64,000 bases of DNA, from the NCBI GenBank assembly GCA_041611735.1, contig JBFIML010000010.1, positions 1-64,000 of the forward strand, read 5' to 3'. The translations under genes and the position numbers were made by a program. This stretch comes from Myxococcota bacterium (lineage in GTDB: Bacteria; Myxococcota_A; UBA9160; PR03). Under the pieces are notes generated by a model. It was not told where the DNA came from. It worked only from the letters and a program-made list of their open reading frames with translations, and did not search any database. Shown piece by piece: positions 3,916 through 53,713 of this stretch (position 1 is the stretch's first letter; each line of letters begins with the position of its first letter).

Positions 3916-3938
3916 CTTCCTTCGCGATAACGCGGGCT

Positions 3939-6260: not shown

Positions 6261-6280
6261 TGGGGTGCGCTCGCTGGAAG

Positions 6281-7516
6281 CTACGCGTCGCTGTTCAGGC
6301 GGATTCCGTGTTTGGCAATCAGCCGATAGATGGCAGTCCGACTCCGTCCGAGTCGTTCGGCAGCCTGGGCCACATTGCCGCCGGTCTCGCGAATCGCGCG
6401 GAGCAGTGCGGCCCGTTCCTGGGCTTGGTGGAGCGCGCGAATCGATGCCACGGTCTCGTCGAACTCGGTCAAGACATCCTTCACTGCGCGCTTCGGGATC
6501 TCGCGACCGCGCGTGAAGGCAATGGCTCGTTCGAGGACCTTCGCAAGTTGTTTGACCCCTCCCGGCCAGGCCTGCGTTTGGAGTAGTTTCACTGCTGCCG
6601 CGGAGAGGCGAACGCCGCCGCGCCCGAGCGAGCTCGCCAACCGGTTGACGAGCGCTTCCGCCAGCAGCGGAACGTCTTCCATGCGTTGGCGAAGGGGAGG
6701 CAGCACGATTTCGAAGCGACGGAGTTCCGCGGCGAGCGCGCGGGAGAACCGGCCGCTCTCCACCAGCACGGCGAGTGGCTCTGAGGCGGAAGCCAGAAGC
6801 CGCGCGTAAGGCCTGAAGTCGCGCTCGGCTGCGTCACGGAGGCGCTCAGCCCAGAAGAGCTGAGCTTTCTCCGAGAGCCGGTCTGTTTGGTCCAGGTAGA
6901 CGACCCCTCGCTCGGGTAGCGGGTCTCCAGGTGCGAAGAAAGGCGCGTCGATGCGCCGGAAGGGGCCGCCCGCGGTCGAGCCGAGGTCGTGGAGCGCGCG
7001 GGCCACGGTGTCGTGTCCGGTGCCGGGCTCGCCGAGGATCAAGACCGGAGTGCGCAGGGGGGCGAGGCCGGCGATGCGACTCCGGAGGCGCACGAGAGCG
7101 GCGCTCGCGCCGACCAACCTTTCTTCCAAGGCCGCGGGGGTCGCCGGGCCGCGGCGAGCGGCCAGCGTATCACGCACGCGCGCGACGAGCTTGTCCACGT
7201 CGACGCTGGTGGAGGAGACGAAGTCGTCCGCGCCGGACTTGAGCGCCGCAACCGCGGTCTCGACGGAGCCATGGGCGCTGAACAGGATCACGGGTACCTC
7301 GGAACGCTCGCGGATGCGTCCGAGGAGCTCGATCCCATCACTGCGCGGCATCACCATGTCCGTGATCACGAGGTCCGGGCGGTGGTGGCAGAAGCGCTCC
7401 CAGGCCTCGCGGCCGTTGCCAGCGACGATCACGTCGAAGCCTGCGTCCTCGAGCTCGGTGGCGAGGACGCGTCGTGCCAACACCTGATCGTCGACGACGA
7501 GGATGGTTCCAGGCAT
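6281..7516 (-). CDS. NtrC-family response regulator (REC-AAA-Fis HTH) with a degenerate AAA+ domain
   Basis: REC motifs LVVDD, DMVMP, FSAHG; AAA remnants ILGEPGTGH, LPPLRQRMED, WPGGVKQL; HTH GGNVAQAAERLGRSRTAIYR. ATG at 7516. Confidence 0.88.
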   Translation of the reverse strand: MPGTILVVDDQVLARRVLATELEDAGFDVIVAGNGREAWERFCHHRPDLVITDMVMPRSDGIELLGRIRERSEVPVILFSAHGSVETAVAALKSGADDFVSSTSVDVDKLVARVRDTLAARRGPATPAALEERLVGASAALVRLRSRIAGLAPLRTPVLILGEPGTGHDTVARALHDLGSTAGGPFRRIDAPFFAPGDPLPERGVVYLDQTDRLSEKAQLFWAERLRDAAERDFRPYARLLASASEPLAVLVESGRFSRALAAELRRFEIVLPPLRQRMEDVPLLAEALVNRLASSLGRGGVRLSAAAVKLLQTQAWPGGVKQLAKVLERAIAFTRGREIPKRAVKDVLTEFDETVASIRALHQAQERAALLRAIRETGGNVAQAAERLGRSRTAIYRLIAKHGIRLNSDA

Positions 7517-7725
7517 CGCGTGGCACCCCGGCGGCTCCCCCGGGGCGCAGGGGCCGCCTGGCCGTTGTCCTGATCCCGATCCTACCAGCATCGCGCGGGC
7601 CGGGGTTCTTGCGCGTGCCCTGCCTGTCGGCGCGAAGCGCGTCCGGGTGTGTGCGCTTGTGTCTCCGGCGGCGGGAGCCACGCCCGTGCGGGCCTGGCGC
7701 CCGCGCGACGACGCGGTGCGTCGTC

Positions 7726-9087
7726 TCAGGCCTCCGCCGCGTAGAGGCGCCAGGCGCCCGGGATGCCCTTGAGCTCGTGGGTGCCGCGCTCCGCGAAGCG
7801 CAGGCCCGAGCCGTGCACGAGGTCGCGCACGGTGCTCGAGACCCACACCTCGCCGGCCTTGGCCAGGGCCGCCACGCGCGCGCCCGTGTGGACGGCGATC
7901 CCGCTCACCTTCTCGCCGAGCCGCTCGCACTCGCCCGTGTGGAGGCCCGTGCGGAGCTCGAGGCCGAGCGGGCGCACCGCGTCGCCCAGGGCCAGGGCGC
8001 AGCGCACCGCCCGCGCCGGGCCGTCGAAGGTGGCGAAGAGGCCGTCGCCGGCGCTGTCCACCTCGTGGCCGCGGAAGCGCGCGATCTCGCGCCGGGCCGC
8101 CTCGTGGAAGCGCGCCAGCAAGTCGCGCCACGGGCGGTCGCCCAGGGCCGCGGCCCGCTCCGTGGAGCCCACGATGTCCGTGAAGAGCACCGTGGCCAGG
8201 ATGCGGTCCGCCTCGGGCGCCGGCCGCGCCCCGGTCAGGAACTCCTGCGTCTCGTCGGCGAGCGCGTCCACGTCGCCCACCCAGGCCAGGTGGTCGGCGC
8301 CCGGGAGCTCCACGAGCCGGGCGCCGGGGATGTGCTCCGCCAGGTAGCGGCCCAGGTGGACGTCGATCATGCGGTCGCCGGTGCGGTGCAGGACGAGCGT
8401 CGGCACGCGGATCGAGGCGAGGACGGGGCGGACGTCGATCTCCATGTTCATGCGGTAGAGGGCGGTGGCGGCGCCCGGGCTCGCGCCCATGCGCAGGAAG
8501 CGCGCCCAGCGGCTGCGTGCGTCCGGGTCGTCGGCCACGCTCGGCGCCATCAGGTGGAGGCCGATGGGGCGCCCCCAGGTCTCCGCGAAGGCGCGCAGCG
8601 CCCGCTCGTGCTGCTCGCGCGGCAGGGCCCAGGGGTCGTCGGGGCCCTGGATCCAGTGGGCGTAGCTCCCGTAGACGACCAGGGCCTCGGTGCGCTCCGG
8701 GTAGGTGGCGGCGAAGAGCAGGCTCATGGGGCCGCCCTCGGAGATGCCGAACAGGGTGGCGCGCTCGGAGTGCGCGGCGTCCATCACCGCGCGCAGGTCG
8801 TCCATGCGCTGCTCGAGGGTCGGGAGCTCGCCCTCGCTGACGCGGTCCGAGAGGCCGGTCCCGCGCTTGTCGAAGACGAGCAGGCGCCGGAAGGAGGCCA
8901 GGCGGCTCACCAGGCGCGTGAAGCCCGGGTCCTCCCAGATGAGCTCCAGGTGCGAGATCCAGCCCGGCACGAAGACCAGGTCGCGGGAGCCGTCGCCCAC
9001 CACCTGGTAGGCGATGTTCACGCCACCGCTGCGGGCGTACTGGGTGCGCGGGGGCTTGCCCGGGCCCGGCGGGGCGCCAGCGCTCAC
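7726..9087 (-). CDS. Alpha/beta-hydrolase fused to a class III adenylate/guanylate cyclase (LipJ/Rv1900c-like)
   Basis: FDKRGTGLSD and GISEGG hydrolase motifs; TVLFTDIVGST, GDG, GLHTGE and AVHTGARV cyclase motifs. GTG start overlaps the upstream GFA stop (GTGA). Confidence 0.9.
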   Translation of the reverse strand: MSAGAPPGPGKPPRTQYARSGGVNIAYQVVGDGSRDLVFVPGWISHLELIWEDPGFTRLVSRLASFRRLLVFDKRGTGLSDRVSEGELPTLEQRMDDLRAVMDAAHSERATLFGISEGGPMSLLFAATYPERTEALVVYGSYAHWIQGPDDPWALPREQHERALRAFAETWGRPIGLHLMAPSVADDPDARSRWARFLRMGASPGAATALYRMNMEIDVRPVLASIRVPTLVLHRTGDRMIDVHLGRYLAEHIPGARLVELPGADHLAWVGDVDALADETQEFLTGARPAPEADRILATVLFTDIVGSTERAAALGDRPWRDLLARFHEAARREIARFRGHEVDSAGDGLFATFDGPARAVRCALALGDAVRPLGLELRTGLHTGECERLGEKVSGIAVHTGARVAALAKAGEVWVSSTVRDLVHGSGLRFAERGTHELKGIPGAWRLYAAEA

Positions 9088-9573: not shown

Positions 9574-11007
9574 GGCGATCTTCACCGGGAAGTCGGGGGG
9601 CAGGGGGGCGTCGAGGGCGAGGGCATTGACGACGGCGGTCTCGCGCGGGCTCCAGGCGTTGCCCGAGCGCGCCGAGAGGGCCTCCAGGGTCTCGCCGCTT
9701 CGGGCCCGCACCACGCGCAGGCGACGCACCGGCACCTTCGCCAGCTGGCTCGGCTGGAGCGGACGGAAGCTCTTCACCACGGCGTCGAAGGCCTGGCGGA
9801 AGCGCGGGAAGCCGCCCGAGGGCGAGGCGCTCTCGATGCGGTAGACGTGGCCCTGCCAGGCGATCCACACCGCGTGGACCAGGGTGTGGCGGTCCTCCCA
9901 GTGGGACTCGGCCCGGACCCGCCAGGCCGCAAGCCCGCGCAGCCGCAGGGGCTCCGACTCGAAGATCGTCCACGTGCGCCCGAAGACCGCCAGGAACACC
10001 CGCGCCGCTGCCTCGGGATCCTCGCCCCGCCCCTGGAGCCGCAGGGTGATGGCCGCGTCGCCGCGCGGCGCGCTGGCGGTGATGGCCTCGGCGGCATTGT
10101 GCAGCGCCCAGCCGTCGGGGAAGCGGATCGCGAAGGCCAGCTCCGGGTGCAGGAAGAGATTCCCGCGCCACAGACCCTGGGCCGGGTTGTCCCCCACCAG
10201 GAGCCCGTCGACCCGGGCCAGGTAGGCCGCGCGCTTCGGGAGCTCGGCGGGGTCGGGCGCGCCCAGGGAGAGCCCGGCTCGCAGCGATGCCTCGGCCGCC
10301 CGGCGCGTGGGCGGCGGGTGGGTGTCGAAGTAGGCCTGGCGGCGCATCACTCCCGTGCGCAGCCGCTCGCTCGCGTCCAGCGAGCGCAGGAACGTGGCCA
10401 TGGCGGCCGGATCCGCGCCCGCCAGACGCGCGAGCTCCTGCCCGCGGCGGTCGGCGTCGTGCTCCTGGTTGCGGCTGTAGGCGGCGACCTCGCCGGGGGA
10501 GTGGAGCAGGAGCGCGCCCAGCACGCCGCCGAGCCCACCGGACTGGCCTTCGAGCACGCGCGCCCGGTGGTGGTCTGCCTCCACGTGCGCCAGCTCGTGG
10601 CCGAGCACGTTCACCAGCTCGTCCTCCGTGTTGACGAGCGCCAGGAGCCCGCGCGAGACGTAGACGGTGCCGTCTGCGAAGGCGAAGGCATTGGGCACGG
10701 GGGTGTCGGCGATGCGGAAGCGGGCCGTGACGCCGCGCAGCGGCACGTGCCGCGTGAGGCGCGCGCCGAGCTCGGCGAGCCAGGCCTCCAGGGCCGCGTG
10801 GTGGGTGCGCCCGAAGCGGCGCTCCACGCGGTCCGGCGGGGCGGGTCGCGCCCCGGCCGTCGTCGGCACCGCCTCGGGCGGGACGGGGGGAGACGCGGGG
10901 GGCCCGACCCGCGCCGCGTCGGGCGCCGGGCCGGTGCATCCCGCCAGGACGAGCCCGAGGGCGAGCGCGCACTGCCGGTGCCGCGCTCCTCGGCTTCGGT
11001 CCCGCAC
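9556..11007 (-). CDS. M48 family Zn metalloprotease lipoprotein (BepA-like) with a LysM-like C-terminus
   Basis: Lipobox LAGC; PNAFA, HELAH, YSRNQEHDAD and THP motifs; C-terminal VRARSGETLEALS. Confidence 0.88.
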   Translation of the reverse strand: MRDRSRGARHRQCALALGLVLAGCTGPAPDAARVGPPASPPVPPEAVPTTAGARPAPPDRVERRFGRTHHAALEAWLAELGARLTRHVPLRGVTARFRIADTPVPNAFAFADGTVYVSRGLLALVNTEDELVNVLGHELAHVEADHHRARVLEGQSGGLGGVLGALLLHSPGEVAAYSRNQEHDADRRGQELARLAGADPAAMATFLRSLDASERLRTGVMRRQAYFDTHPPPTRRAAEASLRAGLSLGAPDPAELPKRAAYLARVDGLLVGDNPAQGLWRGNLFLHPELAFAIRFPDGWALHNAAEAITASAPRGDAAITLRLQGRGEDPEAAARVFLAVFGRTWTIFESEPLRLRGLAAWRVRAESHWEDRHTLVHAVWIAWQGHVYRIESASPSGGFPRFRQAFDAVVKSFRPLQPSQLAKVPVRRLRVVRARSGETLEALSARSGNAWSPRETAVVNALALDAPLPPDFPVKIAGDVPD

Positions 11008-11011
11008 CCCC

Positions 11012-11386
11012 TCAGCGTCGCACGATCAGGATCTCGACGCGACCCGAGGGGCCGATCCAGGAGCTGGCAATCCAGCTGGTGAGGCTCACCACGAGCGTGC
11101 CGAGCAGCGCGGGGCCGAAGCCCGCCAGGCGGAAGCCGTCCAGCAGCGCCGCCACCAGGCCGAGCATGGCGGCGTTCACCACCAGCAGGAAGAGGCCCAG
11201 CGTCACGATCGTGAAGGGGAGCGTCAGCAGCACGATCACCGGACGCACCACGGCGTTCACGACGCCGAGCAGGAGCGCCGCCAGCACCAGCGTCCCCACG
11301 CCGGTGATGTGGACCCCCGGCACGATCGCCGCCGCGAGCCACAGCCCGAGGGCGCTGATGCCGAGCCGGATCAGGAAGCCGGGCAT
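11012..11386 (-). CDS. 4-TM 'phage holin family' (YvlD-like) membrane protein
   Basis: LGVVNAVVRPV..LTLPFTIVTLGLFLLVVNA family signature. Confidence 0.88.
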   Translation of the reverse strand: MPGFLIRLGISALGLWLAAAIVPGVHITGVGTLVLAALLLGVVNAVVRPVIVLLTLPFTIVTLGLFLLVVNAAMLGLVAALLDGFRLAGFGPALLGTLVVSLTSWIASSWIGPSGRVEILIVRR

Positions 11387-41674: not shown

Positions 41675-41795
41675 CGCCAGGGGGCTCCCCTGTACCCTCG
41701 GCGTGCTCGTCCCGTGGGGGTGGGGGACGTGAAATTCCTTGGCCAGGCATTCCTTTGCGAGGCAGGGCCGTCGAGGGCGTCCGAGAGCGTCCGGC

Positions 41796-44213
41796 ATGGC
41801 TAGCCGCGCCGCACGCCGCGGCCGGGGGGCGGCGGCGTCGGAACGACGCTCCGCCCTGCTCCGTTGGCTCCGCGAGGCCGTCGGCCTCGCCCTGATCGCC
41901 CTGGCGCTGCTCGCCGGCCTGGCCCTCTGGAGCTACGCGCCGGGCGATGCGCTCTTCGAGCTCGTGCCGGTCCGCAACCGGGCCGGCGCCGTGGGGGCCA
42001 CCCTGGCCGGGGTCCTGCGCCAGGGCCTGGGTGTCGTCTCGCTGGTGCTGGCGGGCGTGGCCGCCGTGCTCGGGGGTCGTGTCCTGCTGTCGCGGTGCGC
42101 ACCGAGCCCGCGTTTCTGGCTGGGCGGTGCACTCCTGGTGGCCTGCGCGGCGACGCTCCTGGCTGTGGGTCACGTCCTGGCCCCGGCCCGCTTCGAGTCC
42201 GATCTCGGCGGGGCGCTCGGGGTCCGGCTGGCGGCCTGGCAGCGCCCCTGGCTGAGCAGCTGGGGCACGCTCGTCGTCAACGGCCTGGGTGCGGGCGTGG
42301 GGCTGCTCGCCGTGCTCGGCGTCTCGAGCCCGACTGCCTTGCGCGCCGCGGCGGCGGGAGCGGCCGGGCTCGCGGTCCTGGCCCGGCGCGCCCTCGCCGT
42401 CGGCTTCGTGGTCCTGGCGGCCGCGGCCCTGGCGGCGACCGGCCTGGCCCGGGCCCTGGGCCGGCTCGCCGCCGCCGGCGCCAGCGCCCTCGGCGAACGC
42501 TGGCGCGCCTTCGGAGTCTGGCGCGAGCGGCGGGCGCGGCGCGCGCGCGTGGCGGCGATCCGCGTCCCCGACGAGGCGCTGGAGCAGCCGGTGGAGGCGG
42601 TCCTGGAGCCGGCCCGCCCGCGCCCGCGCCGCCGCGACCGCGACGACCCTGCCATCGTGGACCACGCCGCCGAGCGCGAGCCGGGCCGCCCGGCCCGCCA
42701 GGAGGCCTTCGCCTTTCCGGACGGCCGGGCGCGGGGCCCCTACCGCCTGCCCGACGTCGCCATCTTCCAACGCTCGCCGGGCGGCGAGCGCCGCTACGAC
42801 CGCGACAGCCTGATCATGAACTCGCGGATCCTGGAGAAGAAGCTCCAGGACTTCGGCGTGCACGGCCGTGTGGTCACCGTCCACCCGGGACCGGTCATCA
42901 CCATGTACGAGTTCGAGCCGGCCTCCGGGGTCAAGGTGAACCGCATCGTGAACCTGGCGGACGACCTGGCGCTGGCGCTGCGGGCGCTCTCGGTGCGCAT
43001 CATCGCGCCGCTGCCGGGCAAGTCGGTGGTGGGAATCGAGGTCCCCAATGCGGAGCGCGAGGTGGTGGTGCTGCGCGACCTGCTGGAAGCGGAGTCGTTC
43101 CGGTCGAGCCGTTCCAAGCTCACCCTCGCGCTCGGCAAGGACATCTTCGGCAACCCGGTGGAGGCGGACCTGGCCCGCATGCCGCACCTGCTGGTGGCCG
43201 GGGCCACCGGGACCGGCAAGAGCGTGTTCCTGAACGCACTGCTCTGCTCGATCCTCGCCCGGGTCACGCCCGACCAGCTCAAGCTCCTCCTGATCGACCC
43301 CAAGCTCCTCGAGCTCTCGATCTACGAAGGGATCCCGCACCTGATCGCCGACGTGGTGACGAACCCGAAGCGGGCGGCGGCGGCGCTTGCGGGCATCGTC
43401 CACAAGATGGAGGAGCGCTACCAGATGATGGCGGCGCTCGGAGTCCGCAACATCGAGCAGTTCAACGCGCGCGTGGACGAGCAGCTCGCCGACGGTCGAA
43501 CGACGTTCCGCCTGCGACCCCGGCCCGGCGAGACCGAGGCGCGCGAGGCGCCGCTCACGCCCCTTGCCTACATCGTGGTGATCATCGACGAGCTGGCGGA
43601 CCTCATGGTGGTCTCCGCCCGCGACGTGGAGGAGGCGCTCCAGCGTCTCGCGCAGATGGCCCGCGCGGCGGGCATCCACCTGGTGCTGGCCACCCAGCGG
43701 CCGAGCGTGGACGTGCTGACCGGCGTGATCAAGGCGAACTTCCCGGCACGGATTTCCTTCCAGGTCTCGTCGCGCACCGACTCGCGCACGATCCTCGACC
43801 AGAATGGCGCCGAGCACCTGCTCGGCCAGGGGGACATGCTGTTCCTCCCGCCCGGGACCTCGAAGCTCCAGCGCATCCACGGGGCCTTCGTGTCCGAGAA
43901 GGAGGTGACCGAGCTCGTGGCCTTCCTGCGCGACCAGGGAGCGCCGCAGTTCGACGACACGCTCGTGCGCATGAAGGAGGAGAGCGAGGCGCGCGAGGCG
44001 CGGGGCGAGGACGTGGACGACCTCTACGATCGGGCCGTGGCGCTGGTGGCGGAGAGCCGCAACGCCTCGATCTCCCACGTCCAGCGCCGACTCAAGGTGG
44101 GCTACAACCGGGCTGCCCGGATGATCGAGCAGATGGAGGCGGACGGCATCGTGGGTCCCCAGGAGGGGACCCGCCCGCGGGACGTGTTCATCCGCCCCCT
44201 CGACGTCGAATGA
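41796..44213 (+). CDS. ftsK: DNA translocase FtsK
   Basis: N-terminal TM block, PGPVIT.YE, HLLVAGATGTGKS, IIDELADLM, ATQRPSVDV, gamma domain GYNRAAR. Confidence 0.96.
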   Translation: MASRAARRGRGAAASERRSALLRWLREAVGLALIALALLAGLALWSYAPGDALFELVPVRNRAGAVGATLAGVLRQGLGVVSLVLAGVAAVLGGRVLLSRCAPSPRFWLGGALLVACAATLLAVGHVLAPARFESDLGGALGVRLAAWQRPWLSSWGTLVVNGLGAGVGLLAVLGVSSPTALRAAAAGAAGLAVLARRALAVGFVVLAAAALAATGLARALGRLAAAGASALGERWRAFGVWRERRARRARVAAIRVPDEALEQPVEAVLEPARPRPRRRDRDDPAIVDHAAEREPGRPARQEAFAFPDGRARGPYRLPDVAIFQRSPGGERRYDRDSLIMNSRILEKKLQDFGVHGRVVTVHPGPVITMYEFEPASGVKVNRIVNLADDLALALRALSVRIIAPLPGKSVVGIEVPNAEREVVVLRDLLEAESFRSSRSKLTLALGKDIFGNPVEADLARMPHLLVAGATGTGKSVFLNALLCSILARVTPDQLKLLLIDPKLLELSIYEGIPHLIADVVTNPKRAAAALAGIVHKMEERYQMMAALGVRNIEQFNARVDEQLADGRTTFRLRPRPGETEAREAPLTPLAYIVVIIDELADLMVVSARDVEEALQRLAQMARAAGIHLVLATQRPSVDVLTGVIKANFPARISFQVSSRTDSRTILDQNGAEHLLGQGDMLFLPPGTSKLQRIHGAFVSEKEVTELVAFLRDQGAPQFDDTLVRMKEESEAREARGEDVDDLYDRAVALVAESRNASISHVQRRLKVGYNRAARMIEQMEADGIVGPQEGTRPRDVFIRPLDVE

Positions 44214-44938
44214 TCCCGTCCCGGGCGCGTCGAAGGGCCGTGCGCTCGATCCTGCCCCCGTGCCTGGCGATCGCCCTGCTCCTCGTGGCCGCCCCGACGC
44301 CGGCCAACGACTCCGACTCGTCGCCGTCCGGCTCCGGCTGCGCGGAAGCCGCCGCACGCCGGGTCCAGAGCCGTTACGAGGAGATCCGCGACCTCTCCGC
44401 CCGCTTCGAGCAGCGCACCCGCCCGGCTGCCTTCGGAGGCCAGGGCGCGCCCTTCGTGGCCCGGGGGCGCGTCACCCTCGCCAAGCCGGGCCGCATGCGG
44501 TGGGCCTACGAGGCGCCGGAGCCGAGCCTGGTGGTGAGCGACGGCAAGACGGTCTGGGTGTACGACCCCGCCGCCCGCGAGGCCCAGCACCTGCCCCTGG
44601 GCGAGCGTTTCCTCTCGGGCGCCGCGATCCAATTCCTGATCGGCCGCGGCAACCTGCTCGAGGAGTTCTCGGTGAGTTCGCCGGCCTGCGGCGAGTCCCC
44701 GCTGCGCCTCGTGCTGGTGCCGAAGCGGGATGCGCCCTACGAGCGGCTCGAGGTGCGCGTGGAGCCCCGCACCGGCGTGGTGGTCGAGACCGCCGTGGCG
44801 GACCTGCTCGGCAACGTGACCCACGTGGTCTTCGAGGACATGCGCACGAACCAGGACCCCGAGCCGGCCCTGTTCCGCTTCGAGCCGGAGCCGGGCGTCA
44901 AGGTGATCGAGCTGCCGCCGGCACCCGCCAGGCCCTAG
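44210..44938 (+). CDS. lolA: Outer membrane lipoprotein chaperone LolA
   Basis: Signal peptide; SARFEQ, KPGRMRW.Y and VSDGKTVWVYDP motifs; ATGA-coupled to ftsK. Confidence 0.9.
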   Translation: MIPSRARRRAVRSILPPCLAIALLLVAAPTPANDSDSSPSGSGCAEAAARRVQSRYEEIRDLSARFEQRTRPAAFGGQGAPFVARGRVTLAKPGRMRWAYEAPEPSLVVSDGKTVWVYDPAAREAQHLPLGERFLSGAAIQFLIGRGNLLEEFSVSSPACGESPLRLVLVPKRDAPYERLEVRVEPRTGVVVETAVADLLGNVTHVVFEDMRTNQDPEPALFRFEPEPGVKVIELPPAPARP

Positions 44939-45250
44939 GACCCCCCGAACGGAACCATGCAGCCGCGGGCCCTCCCGGGCCGGCGCGTCTCCGCATTCGG
45001 GAAGTCGACTTCCCTCCCGGGGCGGTCTCGCAAGGTTCCGCGCACGCCTCCCGCCTGCCGGTGGATCCCCGACGCTTTCGTCAAGAGGCTGGCTCCTGGC
45101 CCCCAGGCGTTGCCTCACGAGGCGGCAGCCAGGCGGCCCAGATGCGCGTCCCGGCGAAGCCAGCCGGCAGGCGCGCTGGCGGGGGGAGGGCGCCGCACCC
45201 CGCCGCCCCGCTCGCCGGGCGCCTCCGGGCGGCTGGGCCGGCCGTCTCGC

Positions 45251-45278
45251 TTGACAGCAAGACGCGTTCTGATAGACT
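45251..45278 (+). promoter_or_regulatory. sigma70-like promoter upstream of the proteasome operon
   Basis: TTGACA-N16-TAGACT with an extended -10 TGn. Confidence 0.55.
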
Positions 45279-45521
45279 CCACGAGGCTAAAAACGATTGC
45301 AATATCGAGGGTTTCGGCGGTTTCTTCGGCGCGGGTGAGAGCGGCCGGTGGGCCTCGGGAGGCGACCGGCCGGCGGCAGCTTCGGTCTTCGAAGCTCCGG
45401 TGGGGACGGTGATGCGGTCCGGCTCGGGCGTTCCCAACACTCGCGCGCAACGCGCGCGCAACTGCGGCGCGCAGCGGCTCGCCACCGGTTCGCTATCCGG
45501 CGATGATGCCTTTCCGGTGCA

Positions 45522-45537
45522 CGGCACGTGGATTGCA
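45522..45537 (+). promoter_or_regulatory. sigma54 (-24/-12) promoter candidate for arc
   Basis: CGGCAC-GTGGA-TTGCA with exact GG-N10-GC spacing, 62 nt before ATG 45600. Confidence 0.65.
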
Positions 45538-45599
45538 TCGATTCGTCCCCGAGTGGCGCCACGAGCGGGCGTGGCGCCGGAGCACGGGGAGAGGGCGCG

Positions 45600-47423
45600 A
45601 TGAGCGAATTCGATTCGGGCTCGGGCAGGAAGGGCTTCGTTCGGGACGTGATGCGGCGCATCTCGGCCTCGGGGCCCCGCTCAGGCGGAGAGCCGGACCC
45701 CGGGCGTGGCCCGGAGGAGACCCTGGAGGATCTCCTGGACGCGCTGCGGCTGTTCGGCGGGGATTCCAGCGAGTTCCGTCGTCGCTTGGACCGCGTGCTC
45801 GGCGAGTACGAGTCGCTGCGCCGCCGCTACCAGCTCTCCCGCGATCAGCTCGTCGATGCGGAGCGGCAGAACGAGCGGCTGGTCCACACCCTCCAGGAGG
45901 CCAAGCAGCAGATCGAGCTCCTGAAGGAGGAGGTGGAGAAGCTCTGCGCGCCTCCCAACAGCTACGGCGTCTTCACGCGCGCCAACAAGGACGGCACCGT
46001 GGAGATCGTCGTGGACGGCAAGCCCATGCGGGTGAGCGCCCATCCGAAGGTCGATCCCTTCCAGATCGAGGAAGGTCAGCTCGTCGTGCTGAACGAGGCG
46101 TTCAACGTGATCGAGCCGGCCGGCATCGTGACCCGGGGAGAGATCGCGTCGGTGGTCGACCTCCTCGGCGACGGGCGGGCCATCGTGCTCGGCCACGCCG
46201 ACGAGGAGCGCGTCGTCACCCTGGCGTCCATCCTGCGCCAGGAGAAGCTCAAGGTCGGTGACCACATCATGATCGATCCGCGCACCCAGTACGCCTTCGA
46301 GAGGATGCCCAAGTCGGCGGTCGAGGAGGTCGTGCTCGAGGAGATCCCGGAGATCACCTACGATCGCATCGGCGGCCTGGACGAGCAGATCGAGATCCTT
46401 CGCGACGCGATCGAGCTGCCCTACCTGTATCCCGAGGCGTTCGCGGAGCACCGTCTCTCGCCGCCCAAGGGCATCCTGCTGTACGGCCCCCCGGGCTGCG
46501 GCAAGACGCTCATCGCCAAGGCGGTGGCGAACAGCCTGGCGCGGAGCATCGAGCAGCGCACGGGTCGGCGCACCGCTGCGTACTTCCTCAACGTGAAGGG
46601 GCCGGAGCTGCTCAACAAGTACGTGGGCGAGACCGAGCACAAGATCCGCGAGGTGTTCAAGAAGGCGCGCGAGAAGGCCAGCGAGGACGTGCCCGTCGTC
46701 ATCTTCTTCGACGAAATGGATTCGCTCTTCCGCATGCGCGGATCGGGCATCTCCTCGGACATGGAGGCCACGGTGGTGGCTCAGTTCCTGTCGGAGATCG
46801 ACGGGGTGGAGTCGCTGAACAACGTGATCGTGATCGGCGCCAGCAACCGGCAGGACCTGATCGACCCGGCGGTACTGCGCCCCGGACGCCTCGATCTCAA
46901 GGTCAAGGTGCACCGGCCCGACTCCCCGGCGGCGCGCGCCATCTTCGGGAAGTACCTGCTCACCGATCTTCCCTTCCACCCGAACGCGCAGGAGCGCTAC
47001 GGGAGCGATCCGCAGAAGATGGTGGACGGGATGATCGACGACACGATCGAGCACATGTACTCGACGTCGGAAGACAACAAGTTCCTGGAGGTGACGTACG
47101 CCAAGGGCGAGCGCGAGATCTTCTACTTCAAGGACTTCGCGAGCGGCGCGATGATCGAGAACATCGTGGCGCGCGCCAAGAAGAAGGCCGTGAAGCGCCT
47201 GATCGACCACGGGGAACGCGGCGTCAAGCTCTCCGATCTCCTCGAGGCCGTGCGCGAGGAGTTCAAGGAGAACGAGGACCTTCCGAACACCACGAATCCG
47301 GACGACTGGGCGCGCATCTCCGGCCGCAAGGGCGAGCGGATCATCAACGTCCGGACGTTGATGACGGGGATCAATCGGAACGAGCGCTCGATCGAGAACA
47401 TCAGCTCGGGTCAGTACCTGTAG
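45600..47423 (+). CDS. arc: Proteasome-associated AAA ATPase ARC/Mpa
   Basis: N-terminal coiled coil ending PP.SYG, OB domains, GPPGCGKT, KGPELLNKYVGETE, FFDEMD, PNTTNPDDWARISG; C-terminal GQYL docking motif. Confidence 0.97.
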   Translation: MSEFDSGSGRKGFVRDVMRRISASGPRSGGEPDPGRGPEETLEDLLDALRLFGGDSSEFRRRLDRVLGEYESLRRRYQLSRDQLVDAERQNERLVHTLQEAKQQIELLKEEVEKLCAPPNSYGVFTRANKDGTVEIVVDGKPMRVSAHPKVDPFQIEEGQLVVLNEAFNVIEPAGIVTRGEIASVVDLLGDGRAIVLGHADEERVVTLASILRQEKLKVGDHIMIDPRTQYAFERMPKSAVEEVVLEEIPEITYDRIGGLDEQIEILRDAIELPYLYPEAFAEHRLSPPKGILLYGPPGCGKTLIAKAVANSLARSIEQRTGRRTAAYFLNVKGPELLNKYVGETEHKIREVFKKAREKASEDVPVVIFFDEMDSLFRMRGSGISSDMEATVVAQFLSEIDGVESLNNVIVIGASNRQDLIDPAVLRPGRLDLKVKVHRPDSPAARAIFGKYLLTDLPFHPNAQERYGSDPQKMVDGMIDDTIEHMYSTSEDNKFLEVTYAKGEREIFYFKDFASGAMIENIVARAKKKAVKRLIDHGERGVKLSDLLEAVREEFKENEDLPNTTNPDDWARISGRKGERIINVRTLMTGINRNERSIENISSGQYL

Positions 47424-47453
47424 CGGTTCTTCCCGGCTAACCGCGGAGAAGCG

Positions 47454-48938
47454 ATGGCGATCCCCAAGGTGATGGGAACGGAGATCGAATACGGGATCAC
47501 CGTCAAGAACGACCGCGATTTCGACCCCATCTCGAGCTGTGTGCTGCTGGTCAACTCCTACCGGGAGGAGACGGCCGGGCAGATCCTGTGGGACTACGAC
47601 CAGGAGAATCCGCTGGCGGACGCCCGCGGCTTCCAGGTGGAGGGGGAGAAGTACACCCCCAACCAGCAGGAGAACATCGCGCGCAACAAGACGCTCGTGA
47701 ATGGGGCGCGCTACTACGTCGACCACGCCCATCCCGAGTACTCCTGCCCCGAGGTCACCAACCCCCGCGATCTGGTCGTGCACGAGAAGGCCGGCGAGCG
47801 CATCGTGGAGCTCTCGCGGCGCGAGGCCAGCCGGGTGCTCCCGCCGGGCAGTCAGATGCTCATCTACAAGAACAACAGCGATCGCAAGGGAAACAGCTAC
47901 GGCTGCCACGAGAACTACTTGATGGACCGCCGCACGTCCTTCAAGCAGATCGTGGAGCATCTGATGCCATTCCTGGTGACCCGGCAGTTGTACACGGGAG
48001 CCGGAAAGGTGGGCAGCGAGAACCGGGCGCAGCCCTGCGAGTACCAGCTCTCGCAGCGTGCGGACTTCTTCGAGACCGAGGTGGCGCTCGACACCATGGT
48101 GAAGCGCCCCATCATCAATACGCGTGACGAACCCCACGCGGACCGCGAGAAGTACCGCCGGCTGCACGTGATCGTGGGCGACTCGAACATGAGTGAGTTC
48201 ACGATCTACCTGCGCAACGGCGCCACCGCGATCGTGCTTTCCATGATCGAGGACGGCGCGATCACCCGGGACCTCTCCCTCCACGACCCCGTGCGCGCGA
48301 TCAAGGAGGTCTCCCACGACGTCGCCTGCCGACGCCCCCTCGAACTCGCCAACGGAAAGCGTATGACCGCCGTGCAGATCCAGGCCGAGTACCTGGCCAT
48401 GGCGCACCGCTACGTGGCCGGGCGCCCCCAGGAACCCTGGGTCTCCGAGGTCCTGCAGAAGTGGGAGCGGGTGCTCGACGCCCTGGCCCGGGATCCCATG
48501 GAGCTCGCCGGCGAGATCGACTGGGTGATCAAGCACGCGATGATCCGGGGCTTCATGGAGCGCAAGGGGCTCGACTGGGGCTCCTCCCAGGTCCAGATGC
48601 TCGACCTCCAGTACCACGACCTGCGTCCCGACAAGGGGCTGTACTATCTTCTGGAACGCCAGGGGAAGGTCGAGCGCATCGTCGAGGACGACCAGATCCG
48701 CCGCGCCATCCACGAGCCGCCCGAGGACACGCGGGCGTATTTCCGGGGCTCCTGCCTCAAGCGCTTCGGATCGGAGGTCTTCGGTGTGAACTGGGACTCG
48801 ATCTCGTTCGGCATCGGAGACGAGCCGATCAAGCGCGTCCTCATGGTCGAGCCCCTCAAGGGCTCGAAGACGCACGTGGAGGAGCTCCTGGCCCGGTCGC
48901 CGACCGCGGCGGATCTCGTCCGGAACCTGAGGGCCTGA
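47454..48938 (+). CDS. dop: Pup deamidase/depupylase Dop
   Basis: MGTEIEYGI, WDY, NGARYYVDHAHPEYS, SQRADFFE, INTRDEPHAD and PPEDTRAYFRG motifs. Confidence 0.95.
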   Translation: MAIPKVMGTEIEYGITVKNDRDFDPISSCVLLVNSYREETAGQILWDYDQENPLADARGFQVEGEKYTPNQQENIARNKTLVNGARYYVDHAHPEYSCPEVTNPRDLVVHEKAGERIVELSRREASRVLPPGSQMLIYKNNSDRKGNSYGCHENYLMDRRTSFKQIVEHLMPFLVTRQLYTGAGKVGSENRAQPCEYQLSQRADFFETEVALDTMVKRPIINTRDEPHADREKYRRLHVIVGDSNMSEFTIYLRNGATAIVLSMIEDGAITRDLSLHDPVRAIKEVSHDVACRRPLELANGKRMTAVQIQAEYLAMAHRYVAGRPQEPWVSEVLQKWERVLDALARDPMELAGEIDWVIKHAMIRGFMERKGLDWGSSQVQMLDLQYHDLRPDKGLYYLLERQGKVERIVEDDQIRRAIHEPPEDTRAYFRGSCLKRFGSEVFGVNWDSISFGIGDEPIKRVLMVEPLKGSKTHVEELLARSPTAADLVRNLRA

Positions 48939-48960
48939 TCCAGGGCCCGGGAGAGTCGCG

Positions 48961-49221
48961 ATGCAACGCCACACCAACCCCCCTGCTCGCCCTACCGCGG
49001 GATGGCTTCCGATCTTCGCGGCTGCCGACTCCCAGCAGAAGCAGAAGCCGAGACGCGGCGGTGGCGAGGGCGAGGCCGAGAGCGAGGGCGGCCAGAAGCT
49101 CGCCAAGAAGGGCGAGGAACTCAAGGAAGAGATGGACGCACTGATCGACGAGATCGACGAGGTCCTCGAGGAGAACGCCGAGGAGTTCGTCAAGAACTAC
49201 GTCCAGCGCGGCGGCCAGTAG
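48961..49221 (+). CDS. pup: Prokaryotic ubiquitin-like protein Pup (Gln-terminated)
   Basis: DALIDEIDEVLEENAEEFVKNYVQRGGQ*; located between dop and prcB. Confidence 0.95.
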   Translation: MQRHTNPPARPTAGWLPIFAAADSQQKQKPRRGGGEGEAESEGGQKLAKKGEELKEEMDALIDEIDEVLEENAEEFVKNYVQRGGQ

Positions 49222-49252
49222 CCGGCTTCCGGAGACCGAAGAGGGGGGTTCG

Positions 49253-50038
49253 GTGCTCTTCCAGGGCAAGTACGGTGGGTCCAGCTTTCGCGAGCTGATC
49301 GAAACCGACTTCCCGCAGCTCCTTCCGGCGCTGCGGGGGGAGCCGGGTCGAGCGCTCCCGAGCGTCCCGCACGGCACCACCGTGCTCGCGCTCAAGTACG
49401 GTGACGGAGTGCTGGTCGGCGGCGACCGACTCGCCACCGAGGGCTACCGCGTCGCCTCCCGAGACATCCAGAAGGTCTACGCCACGGACGCGCATTCCCT
49501 CATCGCGATTTCGGGGGCGGCGGGACCCAGCATCGAGATGGCCCGTCTGCTGCGCATCGAGCTCGAGCACTACGAGAAGATCGAGGGGGAGGCCCTCGAG
49601 CTCGAGGGCAAGGCCAACAAGCTCTCCCAGATGGTGCGTGCCAACCTGCCCGCCGCCATGCAGGGTCTCGTGGTCGTTCCCATCTTCGCCGGCTACGACC
49701 TGCGCCGGAGCACCGGCCGGCTGTGGAAGTACGACGTGACCGGAGGCCGCTACGAGGAGGCGGAGTACGATGCCTCCGGGAGTGGTGGACTGTTCGCACG
49801 CGACTCGCTCAAGAAGAGCTGGCGGCCGGGCCTTTCGCGGGAAGAGGCGTTGCGAAACGGCATCCAGGCCCTCGTAGATGCGGCCGACGAGGATCGGGCC
49901 ACCGGGGGGGTGGACCTGCTGCGGGGCATCTTCCCCACCGTGAACCTCTGCACCGAGCAGGGCATCGAGGACGTATCCGAAGACGAACTGCGGCGGGTCT
50001 ACGAGCAGGCCATGGCTCCGCGGCGCGCTGCGGAGTAG
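49253..50038 (+). CDS. prcB: 20S proteasome beta subunit
   Basis: SSF-containing propeptide of about 41 aa, HG|TTV cleavage site, GDR.AT, ELEHYEKIEG, SGSGG and D.ATGG. Confidence 0.96.
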   Translation: MLFQGKYGGSSFRELIETDFPQLLPALRGEPGRALPSVPHGTTVLALKYGDGVLVGGDRLATEGYRVASRDIQKVYATDAHSLIAISGAAGPSIEMARLLRIELEHYEKIEGEALELEGKANKLSQMVRANLPAAMQGLVVVPIFAGYDLRRSTGRLWKYDVTGGRYEEAEYDASGSGGLFARDSLKKSWRPGLSREEALRNGIQALVDAADEDRATGGVDLLRGIFPTVNLCTEQGIEDVSEDELRRVYEQAMAPRRAAE

Positions 50039-50044
50039 CCGCCC

Positions 50045-50743
50045 ATGTCGATGCCGTTCTACGTCTCTCCCGAGCAGTGGATGCAGGACAAGGCGGAGTA
50101 CGCCCGCAAGGGCATCGCCCGCGGCCGGTCGCTCATCGCCCTGGAGTACCAGGCCGGCATCCTGCTGATCGCCGAGAACCCGTCGAGCTTGTCGAAGATC
50201 GGTGAGATCTACGATCGCATCGCCTTCGCGGGCGTGGGCAAGTTCAGCGAATTCGACCAGCTGCGCAAGATCGGCGTGCGCTACTGCGACGTGAAGGGCT
50301 ACGCCTACAGCCGGGAGGACGTGCGCGCCAAGGCGCTGGCCAACGCCTACTCCCAGGCGATCGGTGACGTCTTCACGCGCGAGCTCAAGCCGCTCGAGGT
50401 CGAGGTGATCGTGGCGGAGGTGGGCAACGACGAGCTGGTGGGTCAGGAACGCAACGCGATCTTCCGCGTGCAGTTCGACGGCAGCATCTCGGACCATGAG
50501 GGCCATTGCGTGATCGGGGGCAGCGTGGAGAACCTCCAGGGCCACCTCCAGGGCCACTACCGCGCTGATCTACCCCTCGGGGAAGCCGTGCGCCTGGGGC
50601 GCGACGCGCTGGCTCAGGCAGGCGGAGGTCACGCGGGGCTCGCCCCCGAGAACCTCGAGGTGTGCGTGCTCGATCGCTCGCGTCCCGGCCGAAAGTTCCG
50701 GCGCCTTCCCGCCGAAGAAGTACGAGGTATGCTAGGCGGCTGA
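50045..50743 (+). CDS. prcA: 20S proteasome alpha subunit
   Basis: PFYVSPEQ.M.DKAEYARKGIARGRS, KI.EIYDRIAFA, YSREDV and KPLEVE motifs. Confidence 0.96.
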   Translation: MSMPFYVSPEQWMQDKAEYARKGIARGRSLIALEYQAGILLIAENPSSLSKIGEIYDRIAFAGVGKFSEFDQLRKIGVRYCDVKGYAYSREDVRAKALANAYSQAIGDVFTRELKPLEVEVIVAEVGNDELVGQERNAIFRVQFDGSISDHEGHCVIGGSVENLQGHLQGHYRADLPLGEAVRLGRDALAQAGGGHAGLAPENLEVCVLDRSRPGRKFRRLPAEEVRGMLGG

Positions 50744-50773
50744 GGGCCGGGGAAGCCGGCTGCGCCGGAACGC

Positions 50774-52183
50774 GTGGTGCAAAAACGAATCTACGGTCTG
50801 GAGACCGAATACGGGATCATCTTCACGCCCGAGGGCCGCAAGACGCTGCCCGTCGAGAAGGCGATCCGTTTCCTTTTCGAGAAGCTGATCACCACCGAGC
50901 ACTTCCTCAACGTCTTCCTCGAGAACGGCGCGCGCTTCTACCAGGACACGGGCTGCCACCCGGAGTACGCCACGCCGGAATGCGCCTCGCCTCGCCAGCT
51001 GCTCGTGTACGACAAGGCCGGCGAGCGCATCCTGGAGGAGCTCCAGGACTACGCCGAGGAGAAGATCCGCGAGGAGCGCATCGCGGGCAAGCTCTCGATC
51101 TTCAAGAACAACACCGACTTCGTGGGCAACAGCTACGGCTGCCACGAGAACTACCTGGTCGACCGGGATGTAGACTTCTACTACCTGGCCGAGCAGCTGA
51201 TTCCGTTCCTGGTGACCCGCCAGATCTACACGGGTGCCGGCAAGGTCTTCCAGACCCAGGACGGCGTGCACTACTGCATCAGCCAGCGCGCCCAGCACAT
51301 CTACCAGAAGATCTCTGGCACCACGACGAACGATCGCTCCATCATCAACACGCGCGACGAGCCGCACGCGGACCGCGAGAAGTACCGGCGCCTCCACGTG
51401 ATCGTGGGCGACTCGAACATGAGCGAATACACGAACTTCATCAAGATCGGGACGTGCGCCGTCGTGCTGCAGATGATCGAGGACAACTTCATCAACAAGG
51501 ACTTCACCCTGCGCAATCCGGTGAAGGCGATCAAGGACATCTCGTACGACACCACCTGCAAGCGTCGACTGCGCCTGGACAACGGCCGGGAGTATTCGCC
51601 GATCGAGATCCAGCGCGAGTACTGCGAGATGGCCCAGCGCTACCTGGAGCAGTATCCGGTCAGCGACGAGCTACGCGATTCGGTCGTCGAATGGCAGTAC
51701 GTGCTCGACTGCCTGGACACGGATCCCAACCGACTGTCGAGACAGATCGATTGGGTGATCAAGCGGCAGATGATCGAATCGTACCTGGGGAGCCGGGGCA
51801 CGACCTGGAACGATCCTCGCGTCTTCATGCTCGATCTCCAGTTTCACGACATCCGCGTGAGCCGCGGGCTCTTCTATCTGCTGGAGCGCAAGGAGGCGGC
51901 GGACCGGCTGCTGAACGACGACGAGGTCATGAAGGCCAAGACCGAGCCGCCGCCCGACACGCGGGCCAAGATGCGGGGCGAGTTCATCAAGCTCGCGCGC
52001 CAGAACGCGATCCAGTACGACCTGGACTGGTCGAACATCCGCCTCGGCAACCTGCTCAACGTGCGCGTGATCTGCAACAACCCCTTCGAGACCGATACGG
52101 AGAAGGTCGCGGAGCTGGTGCGGACGATCCAGAAGACGAACCTGCGCAAGACGAGCCTCTCGAAGCTGGTGATCCAGTCGTGA
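50774..52183 (+). CDS. pafA: Pup--protein ligase PafA
   Basis: RIYGLETEYG, NVFLENGARFY.D.G.HPEYATPEC, KNNTD..GNSYGCHENY, SQRA.HI and TRAKMRG.F motifs. Confidence 0.95.
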   Translation: MVQKRIYGLETEYGIIFTPEGRKTLPVEKAIRFLFEKLITTEHFLNVFLENGARFYQDTGCHPEYATPECASPRQLLVYDKAGERILEELQDYAEEKIREERIAGKLSIFKNNTDFVGNSYGCHENYLVDRDVDFYYLAEQLIPFLVTRQIYTGAGKVFQTQDGVHYCISQRAQHIYQKISGTTTNDRSIINTRDEPHADREKYRRLHVIVGDSNMSEYTNFIKIGTCAVVLQMIEDNFINKDFTLRNPVKAIKDISYDTTCKRRLRLDNGREYSPIEIQREYCEMAQRYLEQYPVSDELRDSVVEWQYVLDCLDTDPNRLSRQIDWVIKRQMIESYLGSRGTTWNDPRVFMLDLQFHDIRVSRGLFYLLERKEAADRLLNDDEVMKAKTEPPPDTRAKMRGEFIKLARQNAIQYDLDWSNIRLGNLLNVRVICNNPFETDTEKVAELVRTIQKTNLRKTSLSKLVIQS

Positions 52184-52560
52184 GCCCGGCGGAGGATCGC
52201 CCGCGGCTCGTGGCCGTCCCCGGGAGCCCGGAGCCGGCCGCGCCGGAGGCCCCGGCCCCCGGGGTGGGGGGCGCTGGCCGCGCTCCCTGGGTGCTGAGCG
52301 CGCTGCTGGCGCTGGCGCTCCTGATCTCCTTCGTGGCCCTGGTGCGCCAGGTCCAGCAGACCCGCGGGCTCGAGGCCCGGGTGGAGGACCTGAGCGCGGC
52401 CCTGGGCGGCGCCGAGGCCGAGATCGAGGCGCGTCGCCTCCACCTGGATGCGGTGCGCGGGGAGGTCACCCGGGTGGGCGAGGCCCTCGGTGCCCTGGCG
52501 GAGCTGGTGACCCGGGACCCGGCGCCGGCCCCCCCCACGCGGCCGCCCGCAGTCGACTGA
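52180..52560 (+). CDS. Hypothetical single-TM coiled-coil protein coupled to pafA
   Basis: GTGA overlap with the pafA stop; Pro-rich N-terminus, TM WVLSALLALALLISFVALV, heptad-rich C-terminus. Confidence 0.7.
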   Translation: MSPAEDRPRLVAVPGSPEPAAPEAPAPGVGGAGRAPWVLSALLALALLISFVALVRQVQQTRGLEARVEDLSAALGGAEAEIEARRLHLDAVRGEVTRVGEALGALAELVTRDPAPAPPTRPPAVD

Positions 52561-52600
52561 GCCGCCCCCGGGAGCCCGCCCGGGTCCCTCGACTTTCCCC

Positions 52601-52626
52601 TCAATCTCTTCCGCCGGCAACCCGAT
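52601..52626 (+). promoter_or_regulatory. sigma28-like promoter candidate for mreB
   Basis: TCAAT-N15-CCCGAT(A). Confidence 0.4.
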
Positions 52627-52678
52627 ACGTCCCCCGACGGCACGCCCGGGTGGCGCGCCGCCAGCGGAGAGCGCGGCC

Positions 52679-53713
52679 ATGTTCAGCTCGCTCGCGGGCC
52701 TCTTCTCCAACGACCTCGCCATCGACCTCGGCACCGCGAATACGCTGGTGTACGCCCGGGGCAAGGGGGTCGTCTGCTCGGAGCCGAGCGTCGTGGCGGT
52801 CGCCAAGGACCCGAACGGCCGCGGGGAGCGGGTCCTGGCGGTCGGCAACGAGGCGAAGGCCATGCTCGGGCGCACGCCCCACGGCATCCGCGCCATCCGC
52901 CCCATCAAGGACGGGGTCATCGCCGATTTCGAAGTCACCGAGGCGATGCTCCGCTACTTCATCCACCGGGCCCACAACCGCTCCAAGCTCGTACGCCCGC
53001 GCATCGTGATCTGCGTGCCGCCCTGCATCACGAGCGTGGAGAAGCGTGCGGTGCGCGAGTCGGCGCTCTCGGCCGGGGCGCGCGAGGTCTTCCTGATCGA
53101 AGAGCCCATGGCGGCCGCCATCGGGGCCGGACTCGACGTGACTGCCCCCAGCGGGAACATGGTCTGCGACATCGGCGGTGGCACCACCGACGTGGCCGTC
53201 ACCTCCCTGGCCGGCATCGTGGCCTCGCGCTCCGTCCGCTGCGGCGGCGACAAGATGGACGAGGCGATCATCCAGTACGTGAAGCGGAAGTACAACGTCC
53301 TGATCGGTGAGCGCACCGCCGAGGACGTCAAGATGACGATCGCCACGGCCTCGCCGCACGGCAAGACCCAGACCATGGAGATCAAGGGGCGCGATCTGGT
53401 GGCCGGCATTCCGAAGGTGGTGGTGGCCACCAGCGAGGAGATCTACGAGGCGCTGATCGAGCCGATCAGCACGATCGTAGAGACCGTGCATCTCACCCTC
53501 GAGCGGACGCCGCCCGAGCTCGCCGCGGACATCGTGGATCGCGGCATCATGCTGGTGGGCGGGGGCTCCCTGCTGCGGGACCTGGACCGGGTGCTACGCG
53601 AGGAGACCAAGCTCCCCATCCTGCGCAGCGACGATCCGTTCACGGCGGTGGTCCACGGGGCCGGCCGGGCCCTGGAGGACCTGGCCCTGCTGCGCCAGGT
53701 GGCCCTGGTCTGA
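52679..53713 (+). CDS. mreB: Rod shape-determining actin homolog MreB (no adjacent mreC/mreD)
   Basis: DLAIDLGTANT, RPIKDGVIADF, EEPMAAAIGAG, DIGGGTT and TPPELAADI motifs. Confidence 0.95.
   Translation: MFSSLAGLFSNDLAIDLGTANTLVYARGKGVVCSEPSVVAVAKDPNGRGERVLAVGNEAKAMLGRTPHGIRAIRPIKDGVIADFEVTEAMLRYFIHRAHNRSKLVRPRIVICVPPCITSVEKRAVRESALSAGAREVFLIEEPMAAAIGAGLDVTAPSGNMVCDIGGGTTDVAVTSLAGIVASRSVRCGGDKMDEAIIQYVKRKYNVLIGERTAEDVKMTIATASPHGKTQTMEIKGRDLVAGIPKVVVATSEEIYEALIEPISTIVETVHLTLERTPPELAADIVDRGIMLVGGGSLLRDLDRVLREETKLPILRSDDPFTAVVHGAGRALEDLALLRQVALV

Follow-up and report, generated by a model that had tools for sequence, protein, structure and literature searches.

A complete Pup-proteasome gene set in a Myxococcota bacterium and its uncultured relatives

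Does a Gram-negative bacterium labelled as Myxococcota possess a working Pup-proteasome system, and if it does, where did that system come from? Nearly all work on pupylation has concerned Actinobacteria. The question arises from a 64,000-nucleotide stretch of a Myxococcota bacterium genome (GCA_041611735.1, contig JBFIML010000010.1, positions 1 to 64,000; hereafter the window), which is part of a 118-contig assembly that is 95% complete. A first-pass annotation had placed six contiguous and intact Pup-proteasome genes there, and all six open reading frames (ORFs) were found where it had put them, each matching its family, in an operon on the + strand at 45600–52183. We consider it very probable that this operon encodes a functional Pup-proteasome system of the canonical type, which an ancestor of an uncultured Myxococcota-labelled class acquired a single time and which has been passed on vertically since.

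The six-gene operon and its match to known components

The six adjacent genes arc, dop, pup, prcB, prcA and pafA are separated, by coordinates, by gaps of 6–30 nt. Their products were scored with NCBIfam equivalog profiles that carry curated cut-offs, with Pfam as a second library. The proteasome ATPase ARC/Mpa (45600–47423; 607 amino acids) scored 723 bits with TIGR03689 (pup_AAA; cut-off 505), the Pup deamidase/depupylase Dop (47454–48938; 494 amino acids) scored 581 bits with TIGR03688 (cut-off 492) and the tag Pup (48961–49221; 86 amino acids) scored 58 bits with TIGR03687 (cut-off 41) and 72 bits with PF05639. The 20S beta subunit PrcB (49253–50038) scored 293 bits with TIGR03690 (cut-off 192), the 20S alpha subunit PrcA (50045–50743; 232 amino acids) 290 bits with TIGR03691 (cut-off 139) and the Pup ligase PafA (50774 or 50777–52183) 542 bits with TIGR03686 (cut-off 551). 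E-values of these matches ranged from 1e-16 to 1e-217, which rules out a chance match, and Pfam agreed with NCBIfam for the operon proteins and assigned the tag to no other Pfam family. PafA and Dop are distinct proteins, each scoring best with its own model: PafA reached 542 bits with the PafA model against 409 with the Dop model, and Dop 581 bits with the Dop model against 429 with the PafA model. The source gene calls are identical to ARC (607 amino acids), Dop, PrcB and PrcA as read here. The ARC start is the ATG at 45600, preceded by a GGGGAGAGGG stretch. PafA may start at the GTG at 50774 (469 amino acids) or at the GTG at 50777 (468 amino acids); the 469-residue form is absent from the protein collection and the alignments of many relatives begin at residue 2.

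The functional motifs named in the first-pass annotation were all seen in the translations. ARC has Prot_ATP_ID_OB_N, Prot_ATP_ID_OB_C and AAA domains in Pfam, giving an architecture of coiled-coil N-domain, double OB domain, AAA domain (Walker A GPPGCGKT) and C-terminal GQYL, and its alignment with Mycobacterium tuberculosis Mpa (7px9; 632 bits) reaches the terminal GQYL. PrcB has a 41-residue propeptide and a Thr1 directly after HG (HG|TTV), together with D17 and K33 numbered from Thr1, and aligned with the Rhodococcus beta subunit (1q5r) at 234 bits. Dop carries the site DHAHPEYS and aligned with the structures 4b0r and 5lrt at 550 bits over residues 5–492, including this site and the Dop-specific N-terminal loop. 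PafA carries TGCHPEYAT and aligned with Corynebacterium glutamicum PafA (4b0t) at 344 bits over residues 3–450, with a large insert absent. All four proteins thus align end to end with solved structures. The tag ends in YVQRGGQ. A Pup-family tag with a GGQ end, separate PafA and Dop enzymes, an ARC with GQYL and a bacterial-type 20S with alpha and beta subunits together make this a canonical machine, modestly varied in its tag, and not a new kind.

UBact-proteasome clusters are said to have been described by Lehmann and colleagues in 2017 in Gram-negative phyla, and the Gram-negative host of the window is of the same sort. That the system is UBact-type and not Pup-type is nonetheless close to impossible. 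The tag matches only PF05639 and TIGR03687 at E ≤ 0.001, as the Pup-type assignment of the first-pass annotation would have it, and it shares the VLEENAEEF..YVQRGG tail.

Each step of the expected cycle is modelled on the actinobacterial system by homology, with the parts and motifs read from sequence. Dop would convert the terminal Gln of Pup, which in this genome ends in GGQ, to Glu by deamidation, and PafA would then activate that Glu with ATP and link Pup to lysines of target proteins. The coiled coils of an ARC hexamer would bind the helix-forming middle of Pup, the disordered Pup N-terminus would be threaded through the ARC pore, and the GQYL tail of ARC would dock on the alpha ring, so that the substrate could be fed into the 20S PrcAB particle and cut by Thr1 of PrcB. 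Dop may also take Pup off substrates.

Distribution, chromosomal setting and origin

A scan for PafA in one genome per species returned at least 600 matched stretches, and 562 of those listed encode a relative. The best 80 of these 562 (PafA identity 80–94%) are the related loci considered below, with locus numbers prefixed L. Titles naming Myxococcota, Myxococcales, Myxococcaceae or Deltaproteobacteria were found on 68 of the 80; eight others are titled Spirochaet- and one each Gammaproteobacteria, Geobacter, Proteobacteria and uncultured bacterium, and 79 (all except L020) are marked as metagenome-assembled genomes. The 68 titles, together with a LolA gene on the same contig, bear out the Gram-negative, Myxococcota-like host proposed by the first-pass annotation.

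In genome counts, where class and phylum are group codes of the collection not matched to taxon names, PafA was present in 40 of the 41 relatives examined, which span 12 families of the window's order, and, across the class, in 184 of 201 genomes (E ≤ 1e-80; 111 of 118 high-quality ones). Of 151 genomes sampled from the whole phylum, the ARC model matched 27; these were 27 of the 28 sampled from the window's class, with no match among 123 from other classes of the phylum. The six-gene order is preserved in 62 of the 80 related loci, and 15 of the remaining 18 are cut by a contig end; L056, one of these 18, does carry the tag. In a genome of the sister order (G053), two full-length, full-score PafA matches were observed on contigs C31 and C32, which could be a duplicated system or bin contamination.

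The operon lies between genes for FtsK (41739–44213) and LolA (about 44216–44938) on one side and MreB (52679–53713) on the other, at the sites given by the first-pass annotation, and RecA is encoded farther along, beyond MreB. This slot is shared by the relatives: in 56 of the 80 loci LolA is found no more than 2.5 kb upstream, and in 58 MreB is no more than 2.5 kb downstream, with the order ftsK-lolA-[operon]-mreB conserved across the clade. The distribution, the gene order and the locus pattern point to one old acquisition followed by vertical descent. The long residence claimed before is well borne out by the presence of PafA across the class, the restriction of ARC to it among the sampled genomes, the fixed slot and host-like guanine plus cytosine (GC) content at third codon positions (GC3).

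A foreign origin of the operon, whether by a binning or assembly chimera or by recent transfer from Actinobacteria or Nitrospirota, might be suspected from its base composition, as total GC over 46–52 kb is 0.64–0.67 compared to 0.72–0.75 alongside. This dip is confined to codon positions 1 and 2, whereas the GC3 of the operon genes (0.84–0.92) matches that of the flanking genes (0.83–0.95), in line with the host-like codon usage noted earlier. The dip is therefore no sign of foreign DNA, and the lower values at positions 1 and 2 are explained by conserved proteins rich in Lys, Glu, Ile and Asn. Chimerism at the operon borders, raised by the first-pass annotation as a possible flaw, is contradicted by contigs from public runs of two studies that cross both the lolA-arc and the pafA-mreB junctions with 0–2 mismatches, although these contigs are short and one run may be the window's source sample. 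Contigs of run X1 cover 44091–45922 with 0 mismatches and 52100–52957 with 2; those of run X5 cover 43815–45524, 45522–45920 and 52139–52731 with 0–1. The common slot across the clade likewise speaks against foreign DNA, as does the distance from the actinobacterial enzymes shown below, and we regard this explanation as very unlikely.

Outside the clade, relatives were sought with one representative per 50%-identity cluster from 1.84 billion proteins. The best full-length PafA representative was 61% identical, followed by 48%, 44%, 45% and 46%. The 61% cluster includes a record of Candidatus Moduliflexus flocculans, the 48% cluster belongs to Ilumatobacteraceae/Actinomycetota and a 46% cluster is Candidatus Tectomicrobia; identity to labelled actinobacterial cluster representatives did not exceed 48%. 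The closest Dop representative was 64% identical and its cluster contains a Candidatus Entotheonellia record. The database records of the outside relatives already bear the names Pup ligase or Dop, so automatic annotation recognises such genes. A PafA tree was inferred with IQ-TREE in quick mode (45 rows, rooted on Dop; six representatives labelled and most rows unlabelled), repeating an earlier FastTree run that had given long-branch warnings. In the IQ-TREE tree the four Myxococcota-clade PafAs form a clade with support 100 and join the Moduliflexus representative with support 99, a pairing supported in both trees. The window's clade falls outside a 24-row clade (support 95) that contains both labelled actinobacterial rows, with intervening branches of 89–94. 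In four Moduliflexus-type metagenome loci all six genes recur in an identical order, with each of the six proteins 53–65% identical to the window's and a DNA GC of 0.46–0.51, so the whole operon, and not PafA alone, shares its history with low-GC Gram-negative lineages. Judged by its GC3, the operon has since fully taken on the host codon bias.

Several results weigh against a functional system of class-wide descent. The PafA score falls 9 bits under its NCBI cut-off, the only operon protein to do so, and across the class PafA exceeds that cut-off in only 70 of 201 genomes. At E ≤ 1e-80, 17 of the 201 genomes of the class gave no PafA match, and 7 of these belong to the 118 of high quality, which indicates that loss or assembly gaps occur. 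In L083, pafA is preceded by about 6.9 kb of DNA in which the other five genes are not present, and L035 has no dop and an arc match of only 40% identity. The accessory genes known from Actinobacteria do not adjoin the operon, and a profile search of the genome for PF10759 (Bpa/PafE) gave no match, with control genomes equally silent. The pieces recovered from the RNA run X15 (109–163 nt, with 9–13 mismatches, or about 90% identity) represent relatives, and the library may contain DNA. Finally, we know of no pupylated proteins from this lineage.

The tag, further modules and neighbouring elements

The window's Pup has about 24 extra residues N-terminal to the usual Pup start, and its ATG at 48961 has a Shine-Dalgarno site (GGGAGAG) 6 nt before it. 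The tag could be read in 71 relatives. In 54 of them it has such a long form, with an ATG 18–31 codons upstream of the usual N-terminus (MA(A)[DE]..QKQK) and a GGAGG- or GGAGA-like site before it; 15 begin at the usual site and two are unusable (L035, L081). ATG, GTG and TTG are all absent at the canonical N-terminus of the window's pup, so only the 86-residue protein keeps the normal Pup N-terminal region. Codon-position GC in the extension is 0.59/0.50/0.72, compared to a flat 0.63/0.62/0.62 in the same frame of the upstream non-coding stretch; this pattern, together with the start and Shine-Dalgarno sites, makes translation of the extension likely. A hydrophobic motif, LP[IL][FYW]-x-AA, recurs at the end of the extension, which in one subgroup begins with MA[RTN]FI. 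The 86-residue sequence is not in the protein collection, so the window's pup may be uncalled in the source.

In a Moduliflexus-type locus (L100, 6008–6361), the tag also seems to have a long N-terminal extension before the Q/K-rich start, so extended forms of Pup may occur beyond the Myxococcota clade as well.

The last residue of the tag is Glu in 47 of the 71 relatives and Gln in 24; as read in these translations, the tag end switches freely between the two within the clade. Dop is retained wherever the contig reaches it, except in L035, and this retention alongside tags that often already end in GGE fits a main role for Dop as a depupylase.

Two more Pup-ligase-family gene pairs are present in the genome, each with a small ORF between a Dop-like and a PafA-like gene. 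Module 2 (L092, contig C88, 2423–5768) consists of a Dop-like gene (Pup_ligase, 297 bits), a small ORF (about 3990–4196) that ends in RQRGGQ and is missed by the Pfam Pup model, and a PafA-like gene (253 bits), after which come an ArsR-type helix-turn-helix gene and a glyoxalase-family gene. Module 3 (L093, contig C42, minus strand, about 4815–8243) has the same arrangement, with a small ORF (about 6440–6640) ending in LQTGGQ. The window's tag was the only match of the Pfam Pup model in the whole genome, no ARC or 20S genes were found beside modules 2 and 3, and extra weaker Pup-ligase matches occurred in only 5 of the 41 genomes of the order-level scan. An ORF about 1.7 kb upstream of module 3 (about 9914–11035, minus strand) was also observed; it matches Prok-JAB weakly (E 6e-4) and carries an HxH...S..D-like motif.

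A tentative extension of these observations is that the class-wide Pup system is near-housekeeping, that the conserved LP[IL][FYW]-x-AA segment at the N-terminus of the long tag could be a pro-piece or a second recognition element, and that in some genomes, this one included, the system might operate beside two proteasome-less dop-pup-pafA modules whose own tags each end in GGQ, with several orthogonal Pup-type tags in use; we hold this to be possible but doubtful.

The operon proteins differ in how well they are conserved. Across the related loci, median identity was 88% for PafA, 77% for Pup, 76% for Dop, 74% for ARC, 66% for PrcA and 65% for PrcB, compared to 82% for MreB, which PafA exceeded in 62 of 62 loci, making PafA the most conserved gene of the region. 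PafA and Pup being far more conserved than the 20S subunits, together with the two modules lacking adjacent ARC or 20S genes, could indicate that tagging is uncoupled from degradation, with pupylation mainly regulatory or protective, as proposed for proteasome-less actinobacteria, and the 20S particle largely Pup-free. ARC, however, still has both the GQYL tail for docking and the coiled coil that binds Pup, and all six genes stand in one tight operon in 62 of the 80 loci. Such uncoupling therefore appears improbable and a canonical system that joins tagging to degradation remains our preferred reading.

A sigma-70-like promoter candidate lies upstream on the + strand at 45251–45278 (TTGACA, 16 nt, TAGACT, with TG before the -10), matching 10 of 12 consensus positions; its designation as a promoter follows from this consensus match. 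It sits in the 660-bp lolA-arc gap and gives a predicted leader of about 315 nt, and among the 57 relatives in which lolA and arc are both present, 46 have a TTGACA-N15-18-TAnn[ACT]T site in this gap. Alignments of 45–47 leaders also identified a conserved A/T-rich box at 45289–45317 on the + strand, composed of an AAAA run, an A/T run and a GAGRGGTT-like element, which may be an operator. In several relatives the box resembles an inverted repeat (TCGAAATTTCGA-like). No conserved RNA fold was detected in the 45 leaders downstream of the promoter candidate (RNAalifold, 0 pairs), and Rfam gave no matches across the whole window.

Downstream, a gene designated orf7 (52180–52560, + strand) has a GTG start that overlaps the pafA stop codon and encodes a protein of 126 amino acids with one membrane helix and a coiled coil. 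A hidden Markov model built from 29 copies detected orf7 in 56 of the 80 related loci; in every case it lies between pafA and mreB, on the + strand. In loci with inserted DNA it stays beside mreB in L013, L015 and L032 and beside pafA in L028 and L087, and its membership of the Pup system, as opposed to the mreB group, is uncertain. No Pfam or NCBIfam family was assigned to orf7 (best E 0.14 and 0.045, respectively), and its Atlas matches were at most 0.88 and all unnamed. Positive charges on the N-terminal side of the helix suggest that the coiled coil probably faces the periplasm.

Elsewhere in the window, a low-GC patch at 1561–6260 on the minus strand (0.57–0.63 compared to about 0.72) encodes a histidine-kinase-type ATPase protein (842 amino acids) and an MMPL/RND-family transporter (773 amino acids) and adjoins a LolA-like gene at 594–1448. 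This patch may be a later acquisition.

Comparison with known systems and biological meaning

The window shares with Actinobacteria, as in the Mpa-Dop-Pup-PrcB-PrcA-PafA set of M. tuberculosis, all six components and the order arc-dop-pup-prcB-prcA, as well as the GGQ tail, GQYL, Thr1/Asp17/Lys33 and the Dop and PafA active-site motifs, with alignments of 234–632 bits. It differs in its diderm host with LolA, in the N-terminal extension of Pup and in its surroundings: pafBC, tatAC and the tRNA methyltransferase were not among the neighbours, as the first-pass annotation had observed. In the window pafA directly follows prcA, whereas in M. tuberculosis it lies farther off, beside pafBC. UBact-proteasome clusters are similar in overall architecture and diderm host and differ in tag family, since no UBact family matched the window's tag at E ≤ 0.001.

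The closest likeness is to the Moduliflexus flocculans cluster and the Entotheonellia/Tectomicrobia clusters, known from database annotation. Moduliflexus-type loci share the six-gene order, and their tag ends in YVQRGGE; they differ in GC (0.46–0.51 compared to 0.72 in the window) and in their flanking genes. Their Pup is short or nearly short in L094, L096 and L097, and extended, as it seems, in L100, compared to the extended form in the window. The first-pass annotation had given Actinobacteria and Nitrospirota as the known range of the system. The range is wider than this, with the nearest relatives in other Gram-negative candidate lineages (Moduliflexus, Entotheonellia/Tectomicrobia).

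A 2012 review (PMC3511204) describes proteasomes in bacteria other than Actinobacteria as sporadic, with Nitrospirae as an example. It derives the Leptospirillum locus, which like the window is a complete arc-dop-pup-prcBA-pafA locus outside Actinobacteria, from Acidimicrobiales. The window's PafA, by contrast, falls outside the clade with the labelled Ilumatobacteraceae representative, in trees where no Nitrospirota row is labelled. In the myxobacterium (deltaproteobacterium) Plesiocystis pacifica and in Rhodopirellula, Pup/PafA loci without linked proteasome genes have been reported, and the Plesiocystis-type ligases bear a four-helix membrane insert, according to Iyer, Burroughs and Aravind (2008; PMC2588565). 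The window resembles these loci in its Pup-type tag, its PafA-family enzymes and its myxobacterial lineage and differs in that its PafA has no four-helix insert and adjoins ARC and 20S genes.

The statement of the first-pass annotation that the pathway had not been studied experimentally in this lineage thus stands in part. No literature on pupylation or a 20S proteasome in Myxococcota was found in the sources covered, which exclude subscription journals, and no Pup-proteasome paper on Gram-negative phyla concerned this lineage by its title or abstract; the proteasome-less Pup/PafA of Plesiocystis had, however, been reported in 2008 (PMC2588565).

Across a class of widespread uncultured diderms the complete system is fixed, and operons in other candidate phyla of Gram-negative bacteria are related to it. 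The natural range and history of the Pup-proteasome are therefore broader than the textbook account. The clade offers two natural experiments: one on the purpose of Dop when the tag already ends in GGE, as it does in 47 of 71 relatives, and one on the function of the Pup N-terminus, of which long and short forms occur side by side. If the tentative proposal of orthogonal tags is true, a single diderm bacterium would be using several orthogonal Pup-type tags.

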